A stretch of DNA of 64,000 nt from an uncultured Rhizobium sp. (GCA_964502375.1 CAZCWN010000001.1:16278-80277), one strand, 5' to 3'. Positions 1,071-36,486 are shown, counted from the stretch's first letter. Notes: generated by a model from the letters alone, not told the origin. Numbers and translations: made by a program.

Positions 1071-1229
1071 TCCCAAAATTTCCAATCCCTCTGTTAGCCC
1101 TCTCCCCTTAGCCAGTACGCCTAATTTGTTGACATAATTAATAAAAACTTCAAACCACTTTAGCACAAACTCAACCTTGCATAGTCCAATGCGGCTACCC
1201 CCTTGTAACAAATTAATTATAATCTGACT

Positions 1230-1838
1230 ATGAAAAACCAACCAACTATCTCGCAAGCAGAGCAAGTGCTAATTCACTTTTCTGCTACGGGTGATAAATC
1301 CACTGTTGTTAAATTATCTCAAACACCGGGAATTAATATTAATGCTAAAGACGAAAATGGCATGACGGCTTTAATGCATGCTATAGAAAATGATCAACCC
1401 TACATATATTCTTATCTCTTGGAAGATAGAAGAGTTGATATTAATGCCACAGATAACCAAGGACGAACAGCCTTAATACAAGCCATAACAAGGGGTAACA
1501 CAAGCGCAGTGATTTCTCTTCTGAAGCATGGTGCTAATTTTTCGCTAGATCAAATTGCTGATGTTAGAACTGTTAGCCAAATAAGTTTAATATACGCTAC
1601 TTTTTGGAGTTCTCCTGAAAATGCCGCTTCTCTCTTGCAGGCAAGAGGGGTTAATATCAATAGCTCTGAGGAGGGCGGAATTACGGCATTGATGTTTGCC
1701 GCTACAATAGAAGAAACTCAAGAAAAGAAAAATAGCTCAATCATTGAAGCTATTTTGCGAGCAGGCGCAGATACTAGTCTCACAATGTCTACCGAGGGGG
1801 TCACTAAGAATCTTCTGGAAGAAGGAATAAACCCCTAA
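1230..1838 (+). CDS. ankyrin-repeat protein (N-terminal ORF of a possibly split gene)
   Basis: Repeated ANK signatures (G.TALM.A......LL....VDINA.D..GRTALI.A...G....V..LLKHGAN). No SD is visible. A TATAAT sits at 1218-1223. Confidence 0.85.
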   Translation: MKNQPTISQAEQVLIHFSATGDKSTVVKLSQTPGININAKDENGMTALMHAIENDQPYIYSYLLEDRRVDINATDNQGRTALIQAITRGNTSAVISLLKHGANFSLDQIADVRTVSQISLIYATFWSSPENAASLLQARGVNINSSEEGGITALMFAATIEETQEKKNSSIIEAILRAGADTSLTMSTEGVTKNLLEEGINP

Positions 1839-1842
1839 AGTT

Positions 1843-3540
1843 GTGAATGAAAGTTATCCTAGTAATAGCCCTGGCATCTCAGCCTTAGGTCTCGCTCTCG
1901 AAGCAAAAAATATAGGAGCAATAGAAGCCCTAATACAAGCTGGCGCTAGACTTCCAGAACGAGGAGAGCCTGGCACTCGTAACCACATGACTTTAGCTTA
2001 TGCGGCTTTGACATACATTAATATTAACCACCTCCAGCCAAACGAAGCCGCCGTTGTAATGCAGCAAGTAGGAATAGATAATCTAGATAGCAGCTCTAGC
2101 CCTGCTAATAAAATCCCACTATTACTACAGGCTATTAGTGAAGATCTTACAAAGGTTGTTAAGGTTCTTTTACATGGGGGAGCTAACCCAGATATGATCA
2201 TGGTTGTAAGCGAGGAAGAGAGTGGTCCTATAGTGGCTAAAATAACACCACTAATGCGCGCTGTCAGTAAAGGAAATATAGAAGTTGTCCGCTCTCTACT
2301 GGAATATAGGGCAAAGATTGATAGCATAAATCCTGATGGAAATAAAACCGCACTAATTATGGCTCTAGAACAGGGTCATTTTGAAATTGCAGATCTACTT
2401 TTAGAACGTGGGGCAAGGATTACTCCGCAACACCCAACAGCTTTCGTGCTTGCTACCTTCAGAACCGCTTCAGACTTCGAAGCCGCCCTAGACCAAATAA
2501 TACTAGAAGGAGTTAGCATTAACGCCCTAACAGAAGAAGGTTATAGCTCACTTATGATTGCCACTAAAGCACGTCAGATTGAGCTTGGCCGAGCCCTCCT
2601 ACGAGCAGGGGCAGAAGTCAATTTAGAATCTCCAGACAACCATACCGCTTTACTAGGGGCTATTTATTCTGGTGACACGCAACTTATTTCTCTTCTTCTT
2701 GATCGCAGGGCTAATATTGAAAAGGTTACAAAGGAAGCCTTAGAGAAAGCAGTAAAAATAAACGACAAATTTTCTGAGGTTATGGATAGAGTGTTTTCTT
2801 ATGCCATAACCAGGCCAGATCCACAATTTTTTAATCAGCTGTGGCATATCAAAGCTTATAATTTTACTAGTGACGAGATGTTAATAGGGATATCAGCTAC
2901 GCTTAAGGAAAAAAAGAATGATGAAAAAACCAGAAAATTACTCGCCCAACATAGGATTGATTCCCATGAAAGCTGGGAGAAAATTTCTAAACTCAGAGAT
3001 CTAAAAAGCGCATTCGAAAAGCAACTTAAAAAACAAAACGATCCTAATGCCAAGCGTTTAGCAGTGATGACCACCATCGCTTTTGCCACTGATACAGAGG
3101 TAAGGAAAAGCGCTCTATGGATAAGAGACGCTAATTTAGAAACTAAACTGCCTCCAGTAGCAAGCAGCGTGGTTGCCGAGAAATTTATCACAGAAAGTCT
3201 GAGAGCATTTTTAAACGAAGCTCAAATACAGGCCTTAATAACTGTTTTAAGTGATATAATACGCGGCCGGCTTTGTAAGGGTGTAGCAGCGGAGGATAGA
3301 AAAACTGCAGAAGAGGCTTTAGAAGAAAAAGCCACCCTATCCGATGCCCCAGCTGAGGAAAATTTACCAATGGAATCTTCTATGATCACAGAGGAAGAGA
3401 ACAAAAAAGAGCCATCCTTAGCAGATTCCAAACCCAAGGTGCCTGCAACCATAGTCACTCCAGCAGAAGTGAGGCCGCTGGATGAAAGCAGAGATGAGGT
3501 AAGCTATATTTCGCCAGGCAGGGGGTGTTACATCCAATAA
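1843..3540 (+). CDS. ankyrin-repeat protein with a non-ANK helical/acidic C-terminal region
   Basis: GTG start. At least 6 ANK-like units are present (e.g. TPLMRAVSKGNIEVVRSLLEYRAKID, GNKTALIMALEQGHFEIADLLLERGARI, HTALLGAIYSGDTQLISLLLDRRANIE). The last ~270 aa are non-repeat and Glu/Lys-rich. Confidence 0.85.
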   Translation: MNESYPSNSPGISALGLALEAKNIGAIEALIQAGARLPERGEPGTRNHMTLAYAALTYININHLQPNEAAVVMQQVGIDNLDSSSSPANKIPLLLQAISEDLTKVVKVLLHGGANPDMIMVVSEEESGPIVAKITPLMRAVSKGNIEVVRSLLEYRAKIDSINPDGNKTALIMALEQGHFEIADLLLERGARITPQHPTAFVLATFRTASDFEAALDQIILEGVSINALTEEGYSSLMIATKARQIELGRALLRAGAEVNLESPDNHTALLGAIYSGDTQLISLLLDRRANIEKVTKEALEKAVKINDKFSEVMDRVFSYAITRPDPQFFNQLWHIKAYNFTSDEMLIGISATLKEKKNDEKTRKLLAQHRIDSHESWEKISKLRDLKSAFEKQLKKQNDPNAKRLAVMTTIAFATDTEVRKSALWIRDANLETKLPPVASSVVAEKFITESLRAFLNEAQIQALITVLSDIIRGRLCKGVAAEDRKTAEEALEEKATLSDAPAEENLPMESSMITEEENKKEPSLADSKPKVPATIVTPAEVRPLDESRDEVSYISPGRGCYIQ

Positions 3541-3550
3541 ATTTTCAATA

Positions 3551-3582
3551 TTGTAAGGCCAACTAATTTATTGGCCTTACAA
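3551..3582. terminator. 12-bp perfect hairpin between convergent genes (candidate bidirectional terminator)
   Basis: TTGTAAGGCCAA-ctaattta-TTGGCCTTACAA lies 11 nt after the ankyrin ORF stop and 53 nt after the GNAT gene end. There is no clear U-tract on either strand. Confidence 0.45.
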
Positions 3583-3634
3583 TATAAGGTTCAGCTTTAT
3601 AGAAAAGCCGTAGCAAAAAATTTAGAGCCAATCT

Positions 3635-4159
3635 TTAAGCAGCCTTCTCGCCCTTAAAATTTGGATTAAACCAAGCCATAATTGTGTCTAATTCCAATTT
3701 TCCTTCTGCGTTTAAAATACGCTTTTTGCAAAATCCTTCTGATTCAAAACCAAGCGACTTATAGAGTGCAATCCCACGTTTATTACTTTGGCGTGTAAAA
3801 AGCTCAACGCGGGCAATATCAGTGTGCTTCTTTTCTACTTTATTAAGAAAATGGGAAAAAATTTTACGTCCCAAGCCTTGCCCCTGAAAATCAGGATGAA
3901 CAACCATGGTGAGATTTCCTAGAGTATGCCGGAATACCAAGGGCTCATTAGGGTAACCATGAATTTCAGCAATAAGTTTTTTTTCTTGTTCAATAACGAA
4001 AATCAGGCCTTTTTTTAGTGCATTTTGCAAAAAATGCTCCACATAGAATTTCGTAACTTCTTTAGGCGTTCGTGCAATTCCATTTTCACATTCCGCCGTT
4101 GCGCGGTAAAGTTTGATGAGCTCTGCAACGTCTTTTTTATTGGCTTTGCGTAGTTTCAT
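3635..4159 (-). CDS. GNAT-family N-acetyltransferase
   Basis: 174 aa with the acetyl-CoA binding motif QGQGLGRKIF and typical GNAT beta-strand spacing. Confidence 0.8.
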   Translation of the reverse strand: MKLRKANKKDVAELIKLYRATAECENGIARTPKEVTKFYVEHFLQNALKKGLIFVIEQEKKLIAEIHGYPNEPLVFRHTLGNLTMVVHPDFQGQGLGRKIFSHFLNKVEKKHTDIARVELFTRQSNKRGIALYKSLGFESEGFCKKRILNAEGKLELDTIMAWFNPNFKGEKAA

Positions 4160-4305: not shown

Positions 4306-5823
4306 CTAAATTTTCCTTCGGTAAGAAATTGCCTCAAGCAGATGAGGTGCTGAAATTTTATCTATCCCCTCCAAATCTGCAATGCTGCGCGCAACCCTTA
4401 GAATTCTGGTGATCCCACGCATAGAACTATGCATTTTTTTCGCTGCATTTTGCATAATTTTTTGCCCTTCTTCATCAAGTTGGCAGAATTTTTCCAAAAT
4501 TTTCCCGTCAATTTTTGCATTAACTTTCGGTATATTTTTCATTGTTTCTTCTTTCTCATATCTTTCTTTTTGTCTCTGTCGTGCCTTAAAAACTCTGGCT
4601 GCAACCACATTAGAACTTTCGCCTTCTTGGACATAATTATCGGTGGAAAAAATATCTAATTGAGAAACATTCACCAAAATATCAATGCGATCCAAAAGCG
4701 GGCCGGAAATTTTATTTTTATAATCCTCTCCACAAATTGGCGCCTTTTTACATTCGCGCGCGCCATCTCCCAAATAGCCACAGCGACATGGGTTCATCGC
4801 TGCCACTAACTGGAAATTTGCTGGATAATTTATGTGAGAATTGACGCGGGCAATATTAACACTTCCGGTTTCTAGCGGCTGGCGCAGAGAATCTAAAACT
4901 TGCCTCGGGAATTCCGCTAATTCATCTAAAAATAGCACGCCATTATGCGCTAAAGAAATTTCACCTGGCTTTGCCTTAACCCCTCCGCCAACCATTGCTG
5001 GCATTGAGCAAGAATGATGCACTTCACGGTAAGGGCGATGGGTTATTAATTGCCCATCAGAAAGCTTGCCGCTAATGCTGGCAATCATATTGATTTCAAG
5101 GATCTCAGACAATTCAGGTTCCGGCAAAAGCCCAGGCAAACGCGACGCCAGCATTGATTTCCCTGTGCCCGGAGGGCCAGACATTAAAATATTATGCCCA
5201 CCAGCCGCGGCAATTTCCAAGGCACGCTTCGCTATCGCCTGCCCTTTAACGTCGGATAAATCTGGGTAAGATCGGCTAGAAATAATTTTCGAACTTTGGG
5301 GCCGCGCGAGAATTTGCTCACCTTTTAAGTGATTAACCAAAGTTAATAAATCCGGCGCGGCAATAATTTCTAACTCCCCTGCCCAAGCGGCCTCTTTGCC
5401 ATTTTCTCGCGGACAAATTATTCCTAAATTGCGTTGATTAGCGCCAATCGCCGCTGAAATAATTCCACTTACTGGATGAATTTTCCCATCAAGCGAAAGC
5501 TCGCCTAAAATAACAAAATCTTCCACAATAGAAGGAGCAAGCACGCCCATTTCAATCATAATGCCCAGGGCAATTGCTAAATCAAAATGGCTGCCTTCTT
5601 TTTGCAAATCAGCGGGGGCAAGATTAACGGTGATTTTTTTATGAGGCCAAGAAAGGCCGGTAGAACTTATTGCAGCTTGGACGCGTTCTTTCGATTCGCC
5701 CACTGCCTTATCTGGCAGGCCAACGATCGTAAAGCCGGTGAAGCCTGGGGAAATTTTTATTTGAACATCAACAAGGGCAACGTCAATTCCTGCGAAGGAG
5801 AAGGTTTTTATTTTGGCAACCAT
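4306..5823 (-). CDS. YifB/ComM-family Mg-chelatase-like AAA+ ATPase
   Basis: 505 aa. It has an N-terminal Lon-protease-like domain, Walker A GPPGTGKSM, Walker B LFLDEL, and a C-terminal ChlI-associated region (SMRGITRILRVARSIADL). Confidence 0.9.
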   Translation of the reverse strand: MVAKIKTFSFAGIDVALVDVQIKISPGFTGFTIVGLPDKAVGESKERVQAAISSTGLSWPHKKITVNLAPADLQKEGSHFDLAIALGIMIEMGVLAPSIVEDFVILGELSLDGKIHPVSGIISAAIGANQRNLGIICPRENGKEAAWAGELEIIAAPDLLTLVNHLKGEQILARPQSSKIISSRSYPDLSDVKGQAIAKRALEIAAAGGHNILMSGPPGTGKSMLASRLPGLLPEPELSEILEINMIASISGKLSDGQLITHRPYREVHHSCSMPAMVGGGVKAKPGEISLAHNGVLFLDELAEFPRQVLDSLRQPLETGSVNIARVNSHINYPANFQLVAAMNPCRCGYLGDGARECKKAPICGEDYKNKISGPLLDRIDILVNVSQLDIFSTDNYVQEGESSNVVAARVFKARQRQKERYEKEETMKNIPKVNAKIDGKILEKFCQLDEEGQKIMQNAAKKMHSSMRGITRILRVARSIADLEGIDKISAPHLLEAISYRRKI

Positions 5824-5880
5824 GGTGTGGGTTTAGGTAGTATGGGTTTAAATGGTGTGAATTTAACTTTGGTGAAAAAG

Positions 5881-5957
5881 TGGCGAGCCCGAGACGATTC
5901 GAACGTCCGACCCACAGCTTAGAAGGCTGTTGCTCTATCCAGCTGAGCTACGGGCTC
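5881..5957 (-). tRNA. tRNA-Arg (anticodon TCT), CCA encoded
   Basis: The reverse complement folds by hand into a cloverleaf: acceptor GAGCCCG/CGGGCTC, anticodon stem ACAGC/GCTGT, loop CTTCTAA, T-loop TTCGAAT, 3' GCCA. Confidence 0.9.
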
Positions 5958-12199: not shown

Positions 12200-12922
12200 A
12201 ATCTTTAATGCTAATTTTTTCCTGGGCGCCAATTTTTCTTGTCTATTTTCAAAGATAAATTTTTCTAAAAAATATCCACTTAATTTTAAACCGTCCGAAA
12301 GATCTTCACTGTTAATTTGCCTATCTTCTTCAAGCAAGAAACCAGGCAATCTAAGTAATTTATTTTTATAAGGACTGCCTGCCACAAGCGACACTGCCCG
12401 CGCTGATTTAGTTGATACAAAAGCCAAATCAATTTTCGCACCAGTTACCACGCAAGAAGACAGATCAACGCCATATCCCAGGGTTTTTAAAATTTTTAAT
12501 TCCAGCTTGATATAAGAAGATAAAAATTTTTCCGCCGAGCTTTCTTCAGAAGAAATTTCTCGCAAAAAAAGCAGCAATTTTTCAAAGAGAGCTGGTTGAC
12601 TTTCACGCTCTAAGAAAGATTCATCAATTATTGAAAATAAAGAGTTCAAACAATCAATTCGCAGGGAATCAAAAATTATTTTTGAGCAGTAAGACTTGAC
12701 TAAATCAACACAAAAAAATTGGCCAAGATTTTCTTCAATTCGTGCCCGGAATTCAAAATCTATAAGATTACCAATTTGAAAAGTTGCCCTGTCCTTCGTT
12801 GATTTTACTGATTTGATAAAGCCGCGATATACACCATGCTGACGTGAAAAAACTTTAACGATTAAAGAATTTTCGCCATATTTTTTGCTACTTATGATTA
12901 TCCCTTCATCTCTGAATTTCAT
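12188..12922 (-). CDS. recO: DNA repair protein RecO
   Basis: 244 aa. It has an N-terminal OB-fold pattern (DEGIII..KKYGENS.IVKVFS..HG.YRGF) and RecO-like length and helical C-terminus. Confidence 0.85.
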   Translation of the reverse strand: MKFRDEGIIISSKKYGENSLIVKVFSRQHGVYRGFIKSVKSTKDRATFQIGNLIDFEFRARIEENLGQFFCVDLVKSYCSKIIFDSLRIDCLNSLFSIIDESFLERESQPALFEKLLLFLREISSEESSAEKFLSSYIKLELKILKTLGYGVDLSSCVVTGAKIDLAFVSTKSARAVSLVAGSPYKNKLLRLPGFLLEEDRQINSEDLSDGLKLSGYFLEKFIFENRQEKLAPRKKLALKILEK

Positions 12923-13817
12923 CTTTTAAAGAAAGTAAAAAATTTAAAGCCGCTTTAGAATCAGTAAATACGTGCTTTTGTGGCAATTGATTGCGAAACC
13001 AAGTAAGCTGTCTTTTAGCATAATTTCTAGTTTTTTGGGTGGCAATTTCCAACATTTTTTCACGATTTAATTCACCCTTTAGGAAAGCACGAATTTCATA
13101 AAATCCTAGAGTTTTGGTAATTTGTTTATCATCGCTAATGCCTTGTTCTATCAGGGTTCTCACCTCTTCTAAAGCACCTGATTGCAGCATTTTTTCAAAA
13201 CGTCTATTGCAAGTGTCATAAAGTTTTTTGCGATCAGGATTTAAATTAATGTGAATAAATTTTGTCTCAGGGAAAATTATTTTATTTGGTTGTTTTTGCC
13301 AAAAAGATATTATTTTGCCAGTTTGTAAAAAAACCTCGTAAGCCCTGATCAGACGCTGTTTATCGGCTATTTTATTTTCTCCAATTTCAAGCAATTTTCT
13401 TTGCAATTCTTCATGACCAAATTTTTCATAAAATTCACGCGCTTCATTTTTCACTGCTTCATCAATTGATGGAATTTCTGAAATTCCTTCCACCAATTTT
13501 GAAATATACATCCCACTTCCACCAACAATTATTGGCAATTTCTTTTCTCTCCATGCCCCTTCAACCACTGATTTTACAAGGCTAAGCCAGGTTGCAACTG
13601 ATGATGATTCATTGGGCTTTAAATAAGAATATAAGAAATGTTTTACTTTTTTTTGTTCCTCATGAGTGGGTTGCGAAGATAAAATTGGCAAGCCTTCATA
13701 GAGTTGTAAAGAATCAGCATTAATGATAACAATATCCATTTCATCCGCCATTTTCAATGCCAGAGCGGATTTTCCAGAAGCAGTGGGCCCAGAGATTATT
13801 ATGATTTTTTCATCCAT
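12906..13817 (-). CDS. miaA: tRNA dimethylallyltransferase
   Basis: P-loop GPTASGKS, INADS.QLY, PIIVGGSGMY, and a C-terminal YAKRQ.TWFR. Confidence 0.95.
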   Translation of the reverse strand: MDEKIIIISGPTASGKSALALKMADEMDIVIINADSLQLYEGLPILSSQPTHEEQKKVKHFLYSYLKPNESSSVATWLSLVKSVVEGAWREKKLPIIVGGSGMYISKLVEGISEIPSIDEAVKNEAREFYEKFGHEELQRKLLEIGENKIADKQRLIRAYEVFLQTGKIISFWQKQPNKIIFPETKFIHINLNPDRKKLYDTCNRRFEKMLQSGALEEVRTLIEQGISDDKQITKTLGFYEIRAFLKGELNREKMLEIATQKTRNYAKRQLTWFRNQLPQKHVFTDSKAALNFLLSLKDEIQR

Positions 13818-31763: not shown

Positions 31764-32714
31764 ATGATCCGCATTTTCCAACTACCGGAATATTCTCAGC
31801 AAAAAGTTTTGTCATTAGCTGAGGCTGAAAAGCTTGAAAAGGCTGTATGGCTCGATCTACAAAACCCTTCACCCGAAGAAATAAAGGAAGTGGAGGAATT
31901 TTATGGAATCAGCTTTCCAACTCGCCAACAACAAGAGGAAATTGAAATTAGTTCGCGCTATTTAGAAGATTCCGGCACGATCAGAATTAATTCAACTTTC
32001 CTGAACATCATCCCTCAAAGCGGTTTTTTAGAAGAAAACGAAATTTCTTTTATCATGACCGAAAAAGTGCTGCTCACTTTGAGATATTTTGACAGCAAGG
32101 TGATATTTGAAACCGTAAAAAAAATTAAACAATTTCCAAACACTTTTTCTAGCCCCTTAAAAATTTTCATCGCTATTGCTGAATCAAGAATCGATTACGA
32201 TGCCGATTTAATTGAATTAGTGTCAAAATATATCGCTGAAATTAGCAAAAAAATTAACTATAAACTAAATCTTGACGAGAAAATAATTCTAAAAATTAAC
32301 GAATGTCAGGATTTAACAATGTCGTTGCGCGAGGCCTTGTTTGACAAGCAGCGCGTAATCACTTCTTTACATCGCAATGAAAGTTTAATGGCTGAAAGCG
32401 AACATAGATTACGGATTATTATTAAAGATATCAGCTCTCTGATCGAACATGCCAATTTTAATTTCACCCGCTTGGAATATCTACAAAACAGCTTTCTTGG
32501 TTTGATTAACCTTGAACAAAATAAAGCGATTAAAATTTTTACCATAGCTTCTTTGACTTTCATGCCACCTACATTGATCGCAAGTATTTATGGTATGAAT
32601 TTTAAGGTAATGCCAGAGTTAGAGTGGGTGTTGGGCTATCCAGTAGCAATTATCCTGATGGGCCTTTCTTCAATTGCAACCTTGTGGGCTTTTAAGCTTA
32701 AGAAGTGGATTTAA
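31764..32714 (+). CDS. corA: CorA-family magnesium/cobalt transporter
   Basis: 316 aa with the YGMNF signature between two C-terminal TM helices. Confidence 0.9.
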   Translation: MIRIFQLPEYSQQKVLSLAEAEKLEKAVWLDLQNPSPEEIKEVEEFYGISFPTRQQQEEIEISSRYLEDSGTIRINSTFLNIIPQSGFLEENEISFIMTEKVLLTLRYFDSKVIFETVKKIKQFPNTFSSPLKIFIAIAESRIDYDADLIELVSKYIAEISKKINYKLNLDEKIILKINECQDLTMSLREALFDKQRVITSLHRNESLMAESEHRLRIIIKDISSLIEHANFNFTRLEYLQNSFLGLINLEQNKAIKIFTIASLTFMPPTLIASIYGMNFKVMPELEWVLGYPVAIILMGLSSIATLWAFKLKKWI

Positions 32715-35390: not shown

Positions 35391-36486
35391 TTATAATTTT
35401 TCAGTCAATGCCGCCTTAATAAAACCATCCAACTCTCCATCTAACACAGATTGGACATTGCCAGTTTCAAAATCAGTGCGCAAATCTTTTACCAATTGGT
35501 AAGGATGCAAGACATAAGAACGAATTTGATGGCCCCAGCTATTATCCGTTTTTTGACTTTCTGATACTGCCAAAGCCTCCTGCTTTTTTTTCATTTCTAA
35601 TTCATAAAGCCTTGATTTTAGCATCTTCATACATTCAGCGCGATTGCGAAGCTGTGAACGATCACTTTGACATTGCACCACAATATTGGTTGGCAAATGC
35701 GTAATTCTAACCGCGGAATCAGTTTTATTAACATGCTGCCCGCCTGCGCCACTAGCCCGAAAAGTGTCAACACGCAAATCTTTTTCTTCAATGGTAATTT
35801 CAACTTCCTCATCAACTTCGGGATATGCCCATACTGAAGCAAAACTAGTCTGCCGCTTGCCATTAGCGTTAAATGGTGAGATGCGCACCAGCCTATGCAC
35901 ACCAGATTCCAACCGCAACCAACCGAAAGCGAAACGCCCCTGAATTTTTAATGTCGCAGAACGAACCCCCGCTTCTTCACCTTCCAAAATACTAACAATT
36001 TCCACTTTGAATTTGTGCAAATTGGCGAAGCGCTCATACATCCGAAGCAACATTAAAGCAAAATCACAAGAGTCAGTTCCGCCCGCACCAGCGTTGATGT
36101 CAAGAAAACAGTTATTGACATCATTTTCACCAGAAAAAAGGCACTCTATTTCAAAAGCATCAGAATTTTTTTTCAGTTCAGAGAGATTTTTTTCAATATC
36201 CAAAATAAGTTGTGCATCGCTTTCTGCCTTGGCCAAATCAAAATATTGGCGATTATCTTCCAAGCCATTTTTGATTAGCAAAAATTGATTTAATTTTTCT
36301 TCTAAAAGAGATTTCTCTTTAAGAATTTTTTGTGCTTCTAATTTATTTTCCCAAAGGGTGGGCTCTTCTGATTTTTTAATAATTTCCGCTAATTTAGCCT
36401 GTAATTTTTCTGGCTCAAAGACACCTCGCGATCAAGGACAGAGAGGCCTCGATCTGGGTTATTAAATTTTCGATTTCGGCACTCAT
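35391..36486 (-). CDS. prfB: peptide chain release factor 2, requiring a programmed +1 frameshift
   Basis: ORF1 runs from the ATG at 36486 to an in-frame TGA at 36417-36415 (MSAEIENLITQIEASLSLIARCL*). Shifting +1 after CTT continues as EPEKLQAKLAEIIKKSEEPTLWEN... into the 296-aa track ORF, which has SPF and GGQ ([19 protein letters not shown]). Confidence 0.95.
36414..36427 (-). promoter_or_regulatory. prfB +1 frameshift cassette GAGG-TGT-CTT-TGA-G
   Basis: On the minus strand a Shine-Dalgarno-like GAGG sits 3 nt before the slippery CTT, which is followed by the in-frame TGA. This is the same architecture as the E. coli prfB site (GGGGG-UAU-CUU-UGA-C). Confidence 0.85.

Follow-up and report, generated by a model that had tools for sequence, protein, structure and literature searches.

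Near one end of a 64,000-nucleotide (nt) stretch of DNA from an uncultured Rhizobium sp. (GCA_964502375.1 CAZCWN010000001.1:16278-80277), two open reading frames (ORFs) with ankyrin repeats follow one another on the plus strand and are offset by one frame. The locus raised the question of whether these ORFs, which we refer to as ORF A and ORF B, were the pieces of one broken gene, one gene that is expressed by programmed frameshifting, two separate genes, or an intact gene with an error in its recorded sequence. Our analysis of the entire stretch (referred to here as the window) favored a broken gene. Specifically, we put the probability at roughly 0.6 that one lineage-specific ankyrin gene of ~769 codons was recently broken in two when 1 nt was inserted into a run of C nucleotides. 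An earlier interpretation that was made without database searches (the sequence-only reading) had listed such an indel among its options, and this was the option that fit best because the repeat register and the modeled solenoid continued across the junction and because no other broken gene was found in the window.

ORF A (1230..1838, plus strand) started with an ATG at position 1230, ended with a TAA at positions 1836-1838, and encoded 202 amino acids (aa). Direct reading of its 3' end gave GAA GGA ATA AAC CCC TAA, and the terminus of the corresponding protein, ...LLEEGINP, was cut within the loop of a repeat. ORF B (1843..3540, plus strand) encoded 565 aa from a GTG at position 1843, which was located 4 nt past the ORF A stop codon, and its frame was +1 relative to that of ORF A. 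In the ORF B frame (positions equal to 1 modulo 3), there was a TAA at 1828-1830 and the sequence was open from 1831, where it read ACC CCT AAA GTT GTG AAT GAA, with the GTG being the one at position 1843. The junction itself (A-CCCC-TAA, 1831..1838, plus strand) consisted of a C4 run at 1832-1835, the frame-0 stop codon at 1836-1838, and then an A. The end of ORF A, the frame of ORF B, and the +1 shift between them had been described correctly in the sequence-only reading, as direct reading of the sequence confirmed. That reading had also placed the C run in an 8-nt window in which both frames were open. A short window was indeed present around the run, but it covered only the 5 nt at 1831-1835 (ACCCC); the figure of 8 nt had been reached by counting the TAA.

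The two ORFs would be joined if one C were deleted or if peptidyl-tRNA-Pro slipped by +1 from CCC (1833-1835) to CCU (1834-1836). The computed length of the fused product was 769 aa, in agreement with the ~770 aa that had been suggested for a fused ankyrin protein. Across the junction, the fused product would read ...LLEEGINP|KVVNESYPSNSPG..., and the trans-frame peptide predicted for the fusion was ...EEGINPKVVNES... / ...NLLEEGINPKVVNESYPSNSPGISALGLALEAK. The C-terminal peptide predicted for ORF A was ...EEGINP, and the N-terminal peptide predicted for ORF B when it is translated from the GTG was (f)MNESYPS....

Both ORFs encoded ankyrin repeats. In the case of the Pfam family Ank_2, the E values were 1.1e-18 for ORF A, 5.2e-26 for ORF B, and 5.6e-46 for the fusion. 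ORF A contained an N-cap-like start and about five repeats, with repeat units mapped at residues 44-76, 78-103, 120-138, and 150-182. ORF B contained about nine further ankyrin repeats and then an orphan C-terminal region of ~270 aa. Between the mapped repeats of ORF A and those of ORF B was a putative repeat that straddled the frame change (1776..1877, plus strand; fused residues 183-216), and it read TSLTMSTEGVTKNLLEEGINP|KVVNESYPSNSPGI. When P0124 was aligned with the fusion via BLASTP, the alignment ran ungapped for 57 residues through the junction, with TSLTMSTEGVTKNLLEEGINP|KVVNESYPSNSPGISALGLAL placed against SAIDLAVEQCHTEIVKDLLQAGAVIDKAPNHCGVLTNLDLAV. P0007 also crossed the 202/203 boundary ungapped, with LLEEGINPKVVNE aligned with LIDHGANVNATDK, and had a 6-residue gap a few residues farther on. 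Based on these two alignments, which involved unrelated ankyrin proteins and not orthologs and which should be read with the caveat that repeat proteins align across junctions more easily, residues 183-216 appeared to behave as one ankyrin repeat of ~33-34 residues. In such a repeat, the helices would be derived from the frame of ORF A and the end of the loop from the frame of ORF B.

The organization of the two termini pointed in the same direction. As judged by reading the sequence, the end of ORF A was located inside the helix-to-loop motif LLxxGxNP, and the first repeat of ORF B was of the internal type and had no N-cap. In addition, a weak Ank_2 match spanned the junction in a 116-aa segment of the fusion only; neither a shorter fused segment of 64 aa nor either half by itself gave this match. 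A custom repeat hidden Markov model was set aside because it did not call the degenerate repeat at the junction.

To this we added structural modeling. An AlphaFold2 model of the N-terminal 534 residues of the fusion, which was based on an alignment of 40 sequences, had a predicted local distance difference test (pLDDT) score of 80.7 and a predicted template modeling (TM) score of 0.65. The fused model superposed in its entirety on the continuous 12-repeat DARPin 6mol_A, with TM scores of 0.62/0.72. Thus, the fusion was modeled as one continuous solenoid, with low confidence at the junction itself. A single-sequence AlphaFold model, which had a pLDDT score of 48.9, was unusable. The results of the alignments and the fused model indicated that two ORFs on the same strand, but in different frames, corresponded to consecutive parts of one protein.

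A five-repeat ankyrin module was also present twice in the fused protein as the result of an old internal duplication. The two copies (fused residues 7-184 and 306-465, or window positions 1248-1781 and 2146-2625) were 30% identical. The duplicated module carried a noncanonical ATF(W/R) repeat as well as a repeat that was lengthened by an insertion of 6 residues. We did not retain the duplication as a trace of homology across the junction because the comparison of the tails was not significant (36 of 500 shuffles scored at least as high).

We also examined how often a junction of this type might be expected by chance. About 30 pairs of operon neighbors in the window abutted with a short stretch in which both frames were open, and such geometry alone was therefore the norm. 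When homopolymers in 48 genes of the window were expanded by 1 nt in a simulation, 9-13% of the expansions produced a stop codon no later than the next codon, and the stretch in which both frames were open was 5 nt or shorter in 1.6-2.2% of the cases. Hence, the tightness of the junction was mildly unusual, though the junction was picked out after the fact. The features that were specific to this pair were that both ORFs encoded ankyrin repeats, that a homopolymer filled the stretch in which both frames were open, and that the repeat register was carried across. Calculations from run counts indicated that at least four identical bases in a given 5-nt window should occur in ~6% of the cases for any base and in ~0.5% for C or G. 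The C run was the sole possible mutational hot spot of the homopolymer type at the junction, and loss of one C restored a single ORF. Phase variation at this run was rejected because the run was only C4; phase-variable tracts typically contain at least 7 units.

Only one disruption was found in the 2.3 kb of the locus, and no other broken gene was present among the ~60 in the window, which suggested that the event was recent and that the assembly was not riddled with errors. In the other abutting pairs that looked suspicious, the genes proved to be complete, and their Pfam matches were full length (FUR, YjgF, glyoxalase, and TsaE).

The signals around the two ORFs resembled those of a single transcription unit. 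A promoter-like site (TAGCCA, 18 nt, TG-CATAAT) was located at 1109..1138 on the plus strand, with 9 of 12 matches in a scan that used the consensus only. It was the only plus-strand candidate ahead of ORF A and ORF B, and the consensus scan yielded no plus-strand promoter-like sites between 1138 and 1843; the simplest arrangement would therefore be one transcript for both ORFs. Just past the ORF B stop codon and before a convergent GNAT gene, we found an inverted repeat (3548..3585) whose 15-bp arms matched perfectly and were separated by an 8-nt loop. This terminator-like hairpin was probably a bidirectional terminator, and its position after ORF B made the pair look like one transcription unit. 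In addition, ORF B would need a rare GTG start codon (2 of the 56 ORFs in the window had one) and had no promoter-like site of its own, which was consistent with a split gene.

Shine-Dalgarno (SD) sequences were nearly absent upstream of the ORF starts in the window. Based on a survey of 56 ORFs of at least 150 aa, in which starts were assigned mechanically and the estimate was therefore rough, the median energy of the anti-SD duplex was ~0 kcal/mol, with very few values below -5 (e.g., -12.1 at position 31764). Since the genome barely used SD sequences, we dropped SD strength as a test of whether ORF B was independent.

The inferred sequence of events would start with an accessory ankyrin gene that was flanked by conserved genes at a site whose content varies. 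A recent insertion would have converted an ancestral AAC CCT AAA to AAC CCC TAA A and thereby put the TAA in frame, and translation from the ATG at position 1230 would then stop after 202 residues, inside a repeat loop. The remaining 565 codons would stay open in the +1 frame and would be carried on the same transcript. ORF B might be expressed via termination-reinitiation at the GTG at position 1843. Because the CCC_UAA_A sequence is intrinsically slip prone, a small fraction of the ribosomes, probably a few percent at most, may shift into the +1 frame, and any full-length protein that they produced would be incidental.

The two ORFs had few relatives in the collections that we searched. Both ORF A and ORF B were singletons in a collection of 15 billion proteins, and they were present on one NCBI contig; look-ups of their exact sequences yielded no recorded encoding contigs. 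A search of 5.8 billion protein clusters with the fused protein yielded generic ankyrin matches at ~25% identity and no ortholog, and a junction-centered query yielded ORF A and one 28% match only, again with no ortholog. Using the nonankyrin C terminus, an exhaustive search of 1.84 billion representatives identified two distant, short relatives only. In metagenome contigs, there was no match to the DNA pattern of the junction with a variable C run or to the fused protein. It should be noted that the word-index searches missed ORF A (P0121) with the fused query and ORF B (P0001) with the junction query, even though both proteins were in the collection. Such searches can therefore miss identical partial matches, and the finding that there was no ortholog was based mainly on the exhaustive search and on synteny. 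The missing intact ortholog reflects that the gene is an orphan and does not speak for two genes.

The relatives that were found belonged to the C-terminal part of ORF B (~270 residues; window positions 2713-3537, plus strand). This orphan domain was related to P0122 (38%) and P0123 (34%), both of which were encoded on ~1-kb contigs of the JGI metagenome 3300045391. P0123 consisted of about two ankyrin repeats and the same C-terminal domain. For this region of ORF B, we found no Pfam family and no PDB relative.

A comparison of the junction in relatives had been suggested as a check in the sequence-only reading. We carried out this comparison with 80 related loci, but none of them contained the ankyrin gene or an ortholog. 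The relatives were all freshwater metagenome-assembled genomes labeled Rickettsiales or Alphaproteobacteria, and one of them was a single 1.2-Mb contig. In the 80 loci, the ComM/YifB-like neighbor (4306-5823, minus strand) was 49-82% identical, and the ComM gene, the alpha/beta-hydrolase gene, and the L31 gene were kept together in 29. The ComM gene in the related loci was followed directly by the alpha/beta-hydrolase and L31 genes, with a GNAT gene between them in a few loci. In the window, the ankyrin gene was part of a segment (1071..3634, plus strand) between the alpha/beta-hydrolase gene at 369-1070 and the GNAT gene at 3635-4159 (minus strand). In the relatives, these two flanking genes were next to each other unless the GNAT gene was missing. 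Because the relatives carried no ankyrin gene at the syntenic site (0 of 80 loci), segment 1071-3634 was specific to this genome.

Other genes were found at this site in other lineages. In L001, which was the closest relative, a DUF1016/YhcG-like gene (as judged by sequence reading) was located at 4870-5883 between the ComM and GNAT genes, and it was split by an in-frame TAA at 5239-5241 (GAT TAA GTG). In L010, a 276-aa ORF at 12409-13239 (minus strand in the orientation of the locus) was located between the GNAT and hydrolase genes; it had a KxDG-type motif and looked DNA ligase-like by eye. Thus, the ankyrin site is variable and carries different cargo in different lineages. The finding that another accessory gene at the same spot was also broken in L001 was in line with a split ankyrin gene. 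A mobile-element signature was considered and rejected, as the segment lacked meaningful direct repeats at its flanks and its composition was not strongly anomalous. A tRNA-Arg(TCT) gene (5881-5957, minus strand) was located directly upstream of the ComM gene, ~2.2 kb from the ankyrin/GNAT segment, and we observed neither an integrase nor att-like repeats.

The sequence-only reading had also proposed that the junction might be a programmed +1 frameshift and had invoked the CTT TGA site of prfB in the window. The prfB site, a canonical programmed +1 site, was present at 36420-36415 on the minus strand. The gene (36485-35391, minus strand) started with an ATG at 36485, had a CTT at 36420-36418 and a TGA at 36417-36415, and continued in the +1 frame into a long ORF ending at 35391. 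The prfB shift site read GCG AGG TGT CTT TGA G, and the SD-like GAGG was located 3 nt before the CTT. This GAGG was kept in prfB although the genome hardly used SD sequences for initiation. As for the junction, it had the core of a shifty stop: the CCC in the P site could re-pair as CCU at +1, and the stop codon of the A site (TAA, 1836-1838) was located immediately 3' and was followed by an A. The arrangement of the stimulator was different (GAGG-TGT-CTT-TGA at prfB versus AGGA-ATAAAC-CCC-TAA at the junction), as the SD-like AGGA at 1823..1826 (plus strand) was 6 nt upstream of the CCC codon. The spacing between the SD sequence and the slip site is known to be important in prfB. Folding of the RNA at 1800-1920 was no better than that of shuffled sequences (z=+0.96). 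UAA is usually the stop codon that is recognized most efficiently, and to our knowledge, bacterial chromosomes very rarely carry programmed +1 sites apart from that of prfB. According to previous work, +1 shifting occurs especially readily at CCC_UGA, and CCC_UAA is used for expression by the Lactobacillus phage Q54 and the Bacillus phage SPP1 (PMC3082878). The same study indicated that a bare CCC_UGA in Escherichia coli generally yields ≤2% frameshifting, that the 15% observed with the CCC_UGA of pheL depends on the 5' context and appears incidental, and that pdxH, which also ends in CCC_UGA, gives no detectable frameshift product, with several such genes giving none (PMC3082878).

These findings bear on the idea that the CCC_UAA_A sequence is a functional recoding site in a freshwater Rickettsiales-like bacterium, with the tRNA-Pro slipping from CCC to CCU while UAA is in the A site and with one mRNA yielding a set ratio of 202-aa and 769-aa products in the absence of an SD stimulator. 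The slip is chemically reasonable and CCC_UAA is a documented shifty stop, so this part of the earlier proposal held. A stop codon directly after the run was found in only 9-13% of random expansions, and the 565 downstream codons were fully intact, both of which would suit a selected site. However, the proposal that the shift is programmed gained no support: there was no ortholog and hence no evidence of conservation (conservation being the decisive test for programmed frameshifting), no SD-like stimulator at the prfB spacing, and no local RNA structure. In addition, the slippage reported for bare CCC_UGA codons is low, the stop codon is UAA, and frameshift-broken ankyrin genes are common while chromosomal sites beyond prfB are very rare. 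We therefore considered functional recoding to be highly improbable. It is also improbable, though somewhat less so, that the true run is C3 and the gene is an intact one of 769 codons, the extra C being a consensus error or a minority allele that was fixed by the assembler. The source was a draft contig (84,164 bp, NCBI), all of the relatives that we found were metagenome-assembled genomes, and the lesion was located in a homopolymer, which is a classic site of errors. On the other hand, the run was only 4 nt long, and none of the remaining genes in the 64-kb window looked frameshifted, which argued against an error-prone assembly.

A further possibility, which we viewed as plausible but unlikely, is that the locus contains two genuinely separate ankyrin genes whose translation is coupled, with ORF A being a stand-alone five-repeat protein, ORF B carrying the C-terminal domain and starting at the GTG at position 1843, and the C run being coincidental. 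Several findings that are compatible with two genes weighed against a single split gene. The 4-nt distance between the stop and start codons was typical of operon neighbors in the window. ORF A corresponded to one complete copy of the duplicated module, and the paralogous alignment ended at residue 184, before the junction; this match suits a stand-alone ORF A equally well. At residues 199-207, which coincide exactly with the junction, the model had a pLDDT score of less than 50. P0123, with about two repeats, indicated that the repeat number is variable and that a 565-aa ORF B could be full length, and the missing SD sequence of ORF B was uninformative and no objection to an independent start in a genome that rarely uses SD sequences. 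Furthermore, no intact single-ORF ortholog or allele was found in proteins, metagenomes, or syntenic loci, and the ancestral state was therefore inferred. Against two genes, the preserved repeat register across the frame change would have to be a coincidence, with a chance that we estimated to be roughly 0.1. Moreover, ORF A would end in an LLxxGxNP motif, ORF B would lack an N-cap and use a rare type of start codon, and a C4 run would be present at the junction by chance (~0.5% for a C or G run).

A gene split by an insertion has parallels in other bacteria. Ankyrin genes with frameshifts are well documented in Rickettsia (PMC2791219), and the locus described here resembles A1G_04305 of Rickettsia peacockii, an ankyrin gene with a single frameshift in a small genome of the Rickettsiales type (PMC2791219). 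It also resembles the split genes of reduced, host-associated bacteria, in which both pieces are long ORFs on the same strand and the gene is an accessory one that varies between relatives. Unlike the Rickettsia cases, in which an intact ortholog in a sister genome proves the split, the intact ancestor in our case was deduced from the repeat register and modeling. The junction shares the hexanucleotide logic of shifty stops such as prfB CUU_UGA, pheL CCC_UGA, and the CCC_UAA of phages Q54 and SPP1 (PMC3082878), and some incidental slippage would be expected at the junction as a result. In contrast to shifty stops that are under selection, it was found without a 5' stimulator at the right spacing, conservation, or a known need for two products. 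With a start codon (GTG, 1843) 4 nt past the TAA, the pair is similar to coupled operon neighbors that are expressed via termination-reinitiation. However, normal pairs in the window had ATG starts and unrelated, complete domains, whereas ORF A and ORF B shared one repeat across their boundary.

If efficient and conserved CCC_UAA slippage did occur at this locus, it would be a cellular example of a phage-type site and a chromosomal +1 frameshift outside of prfB and phages. The orphan C-terminal domain of ~270 residues, for which only two distant environmental relatives were found, is of minor separate interest. For annotation, both ORFs should be marked as parts of what is probably one disrupted gene. 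In terms of biology, the split gene that we favor would be a case of ordinary gene decay, that is, another accessory ankyrin gene interrupted by a frameshift in a reduced alphaproteobacterial genome.

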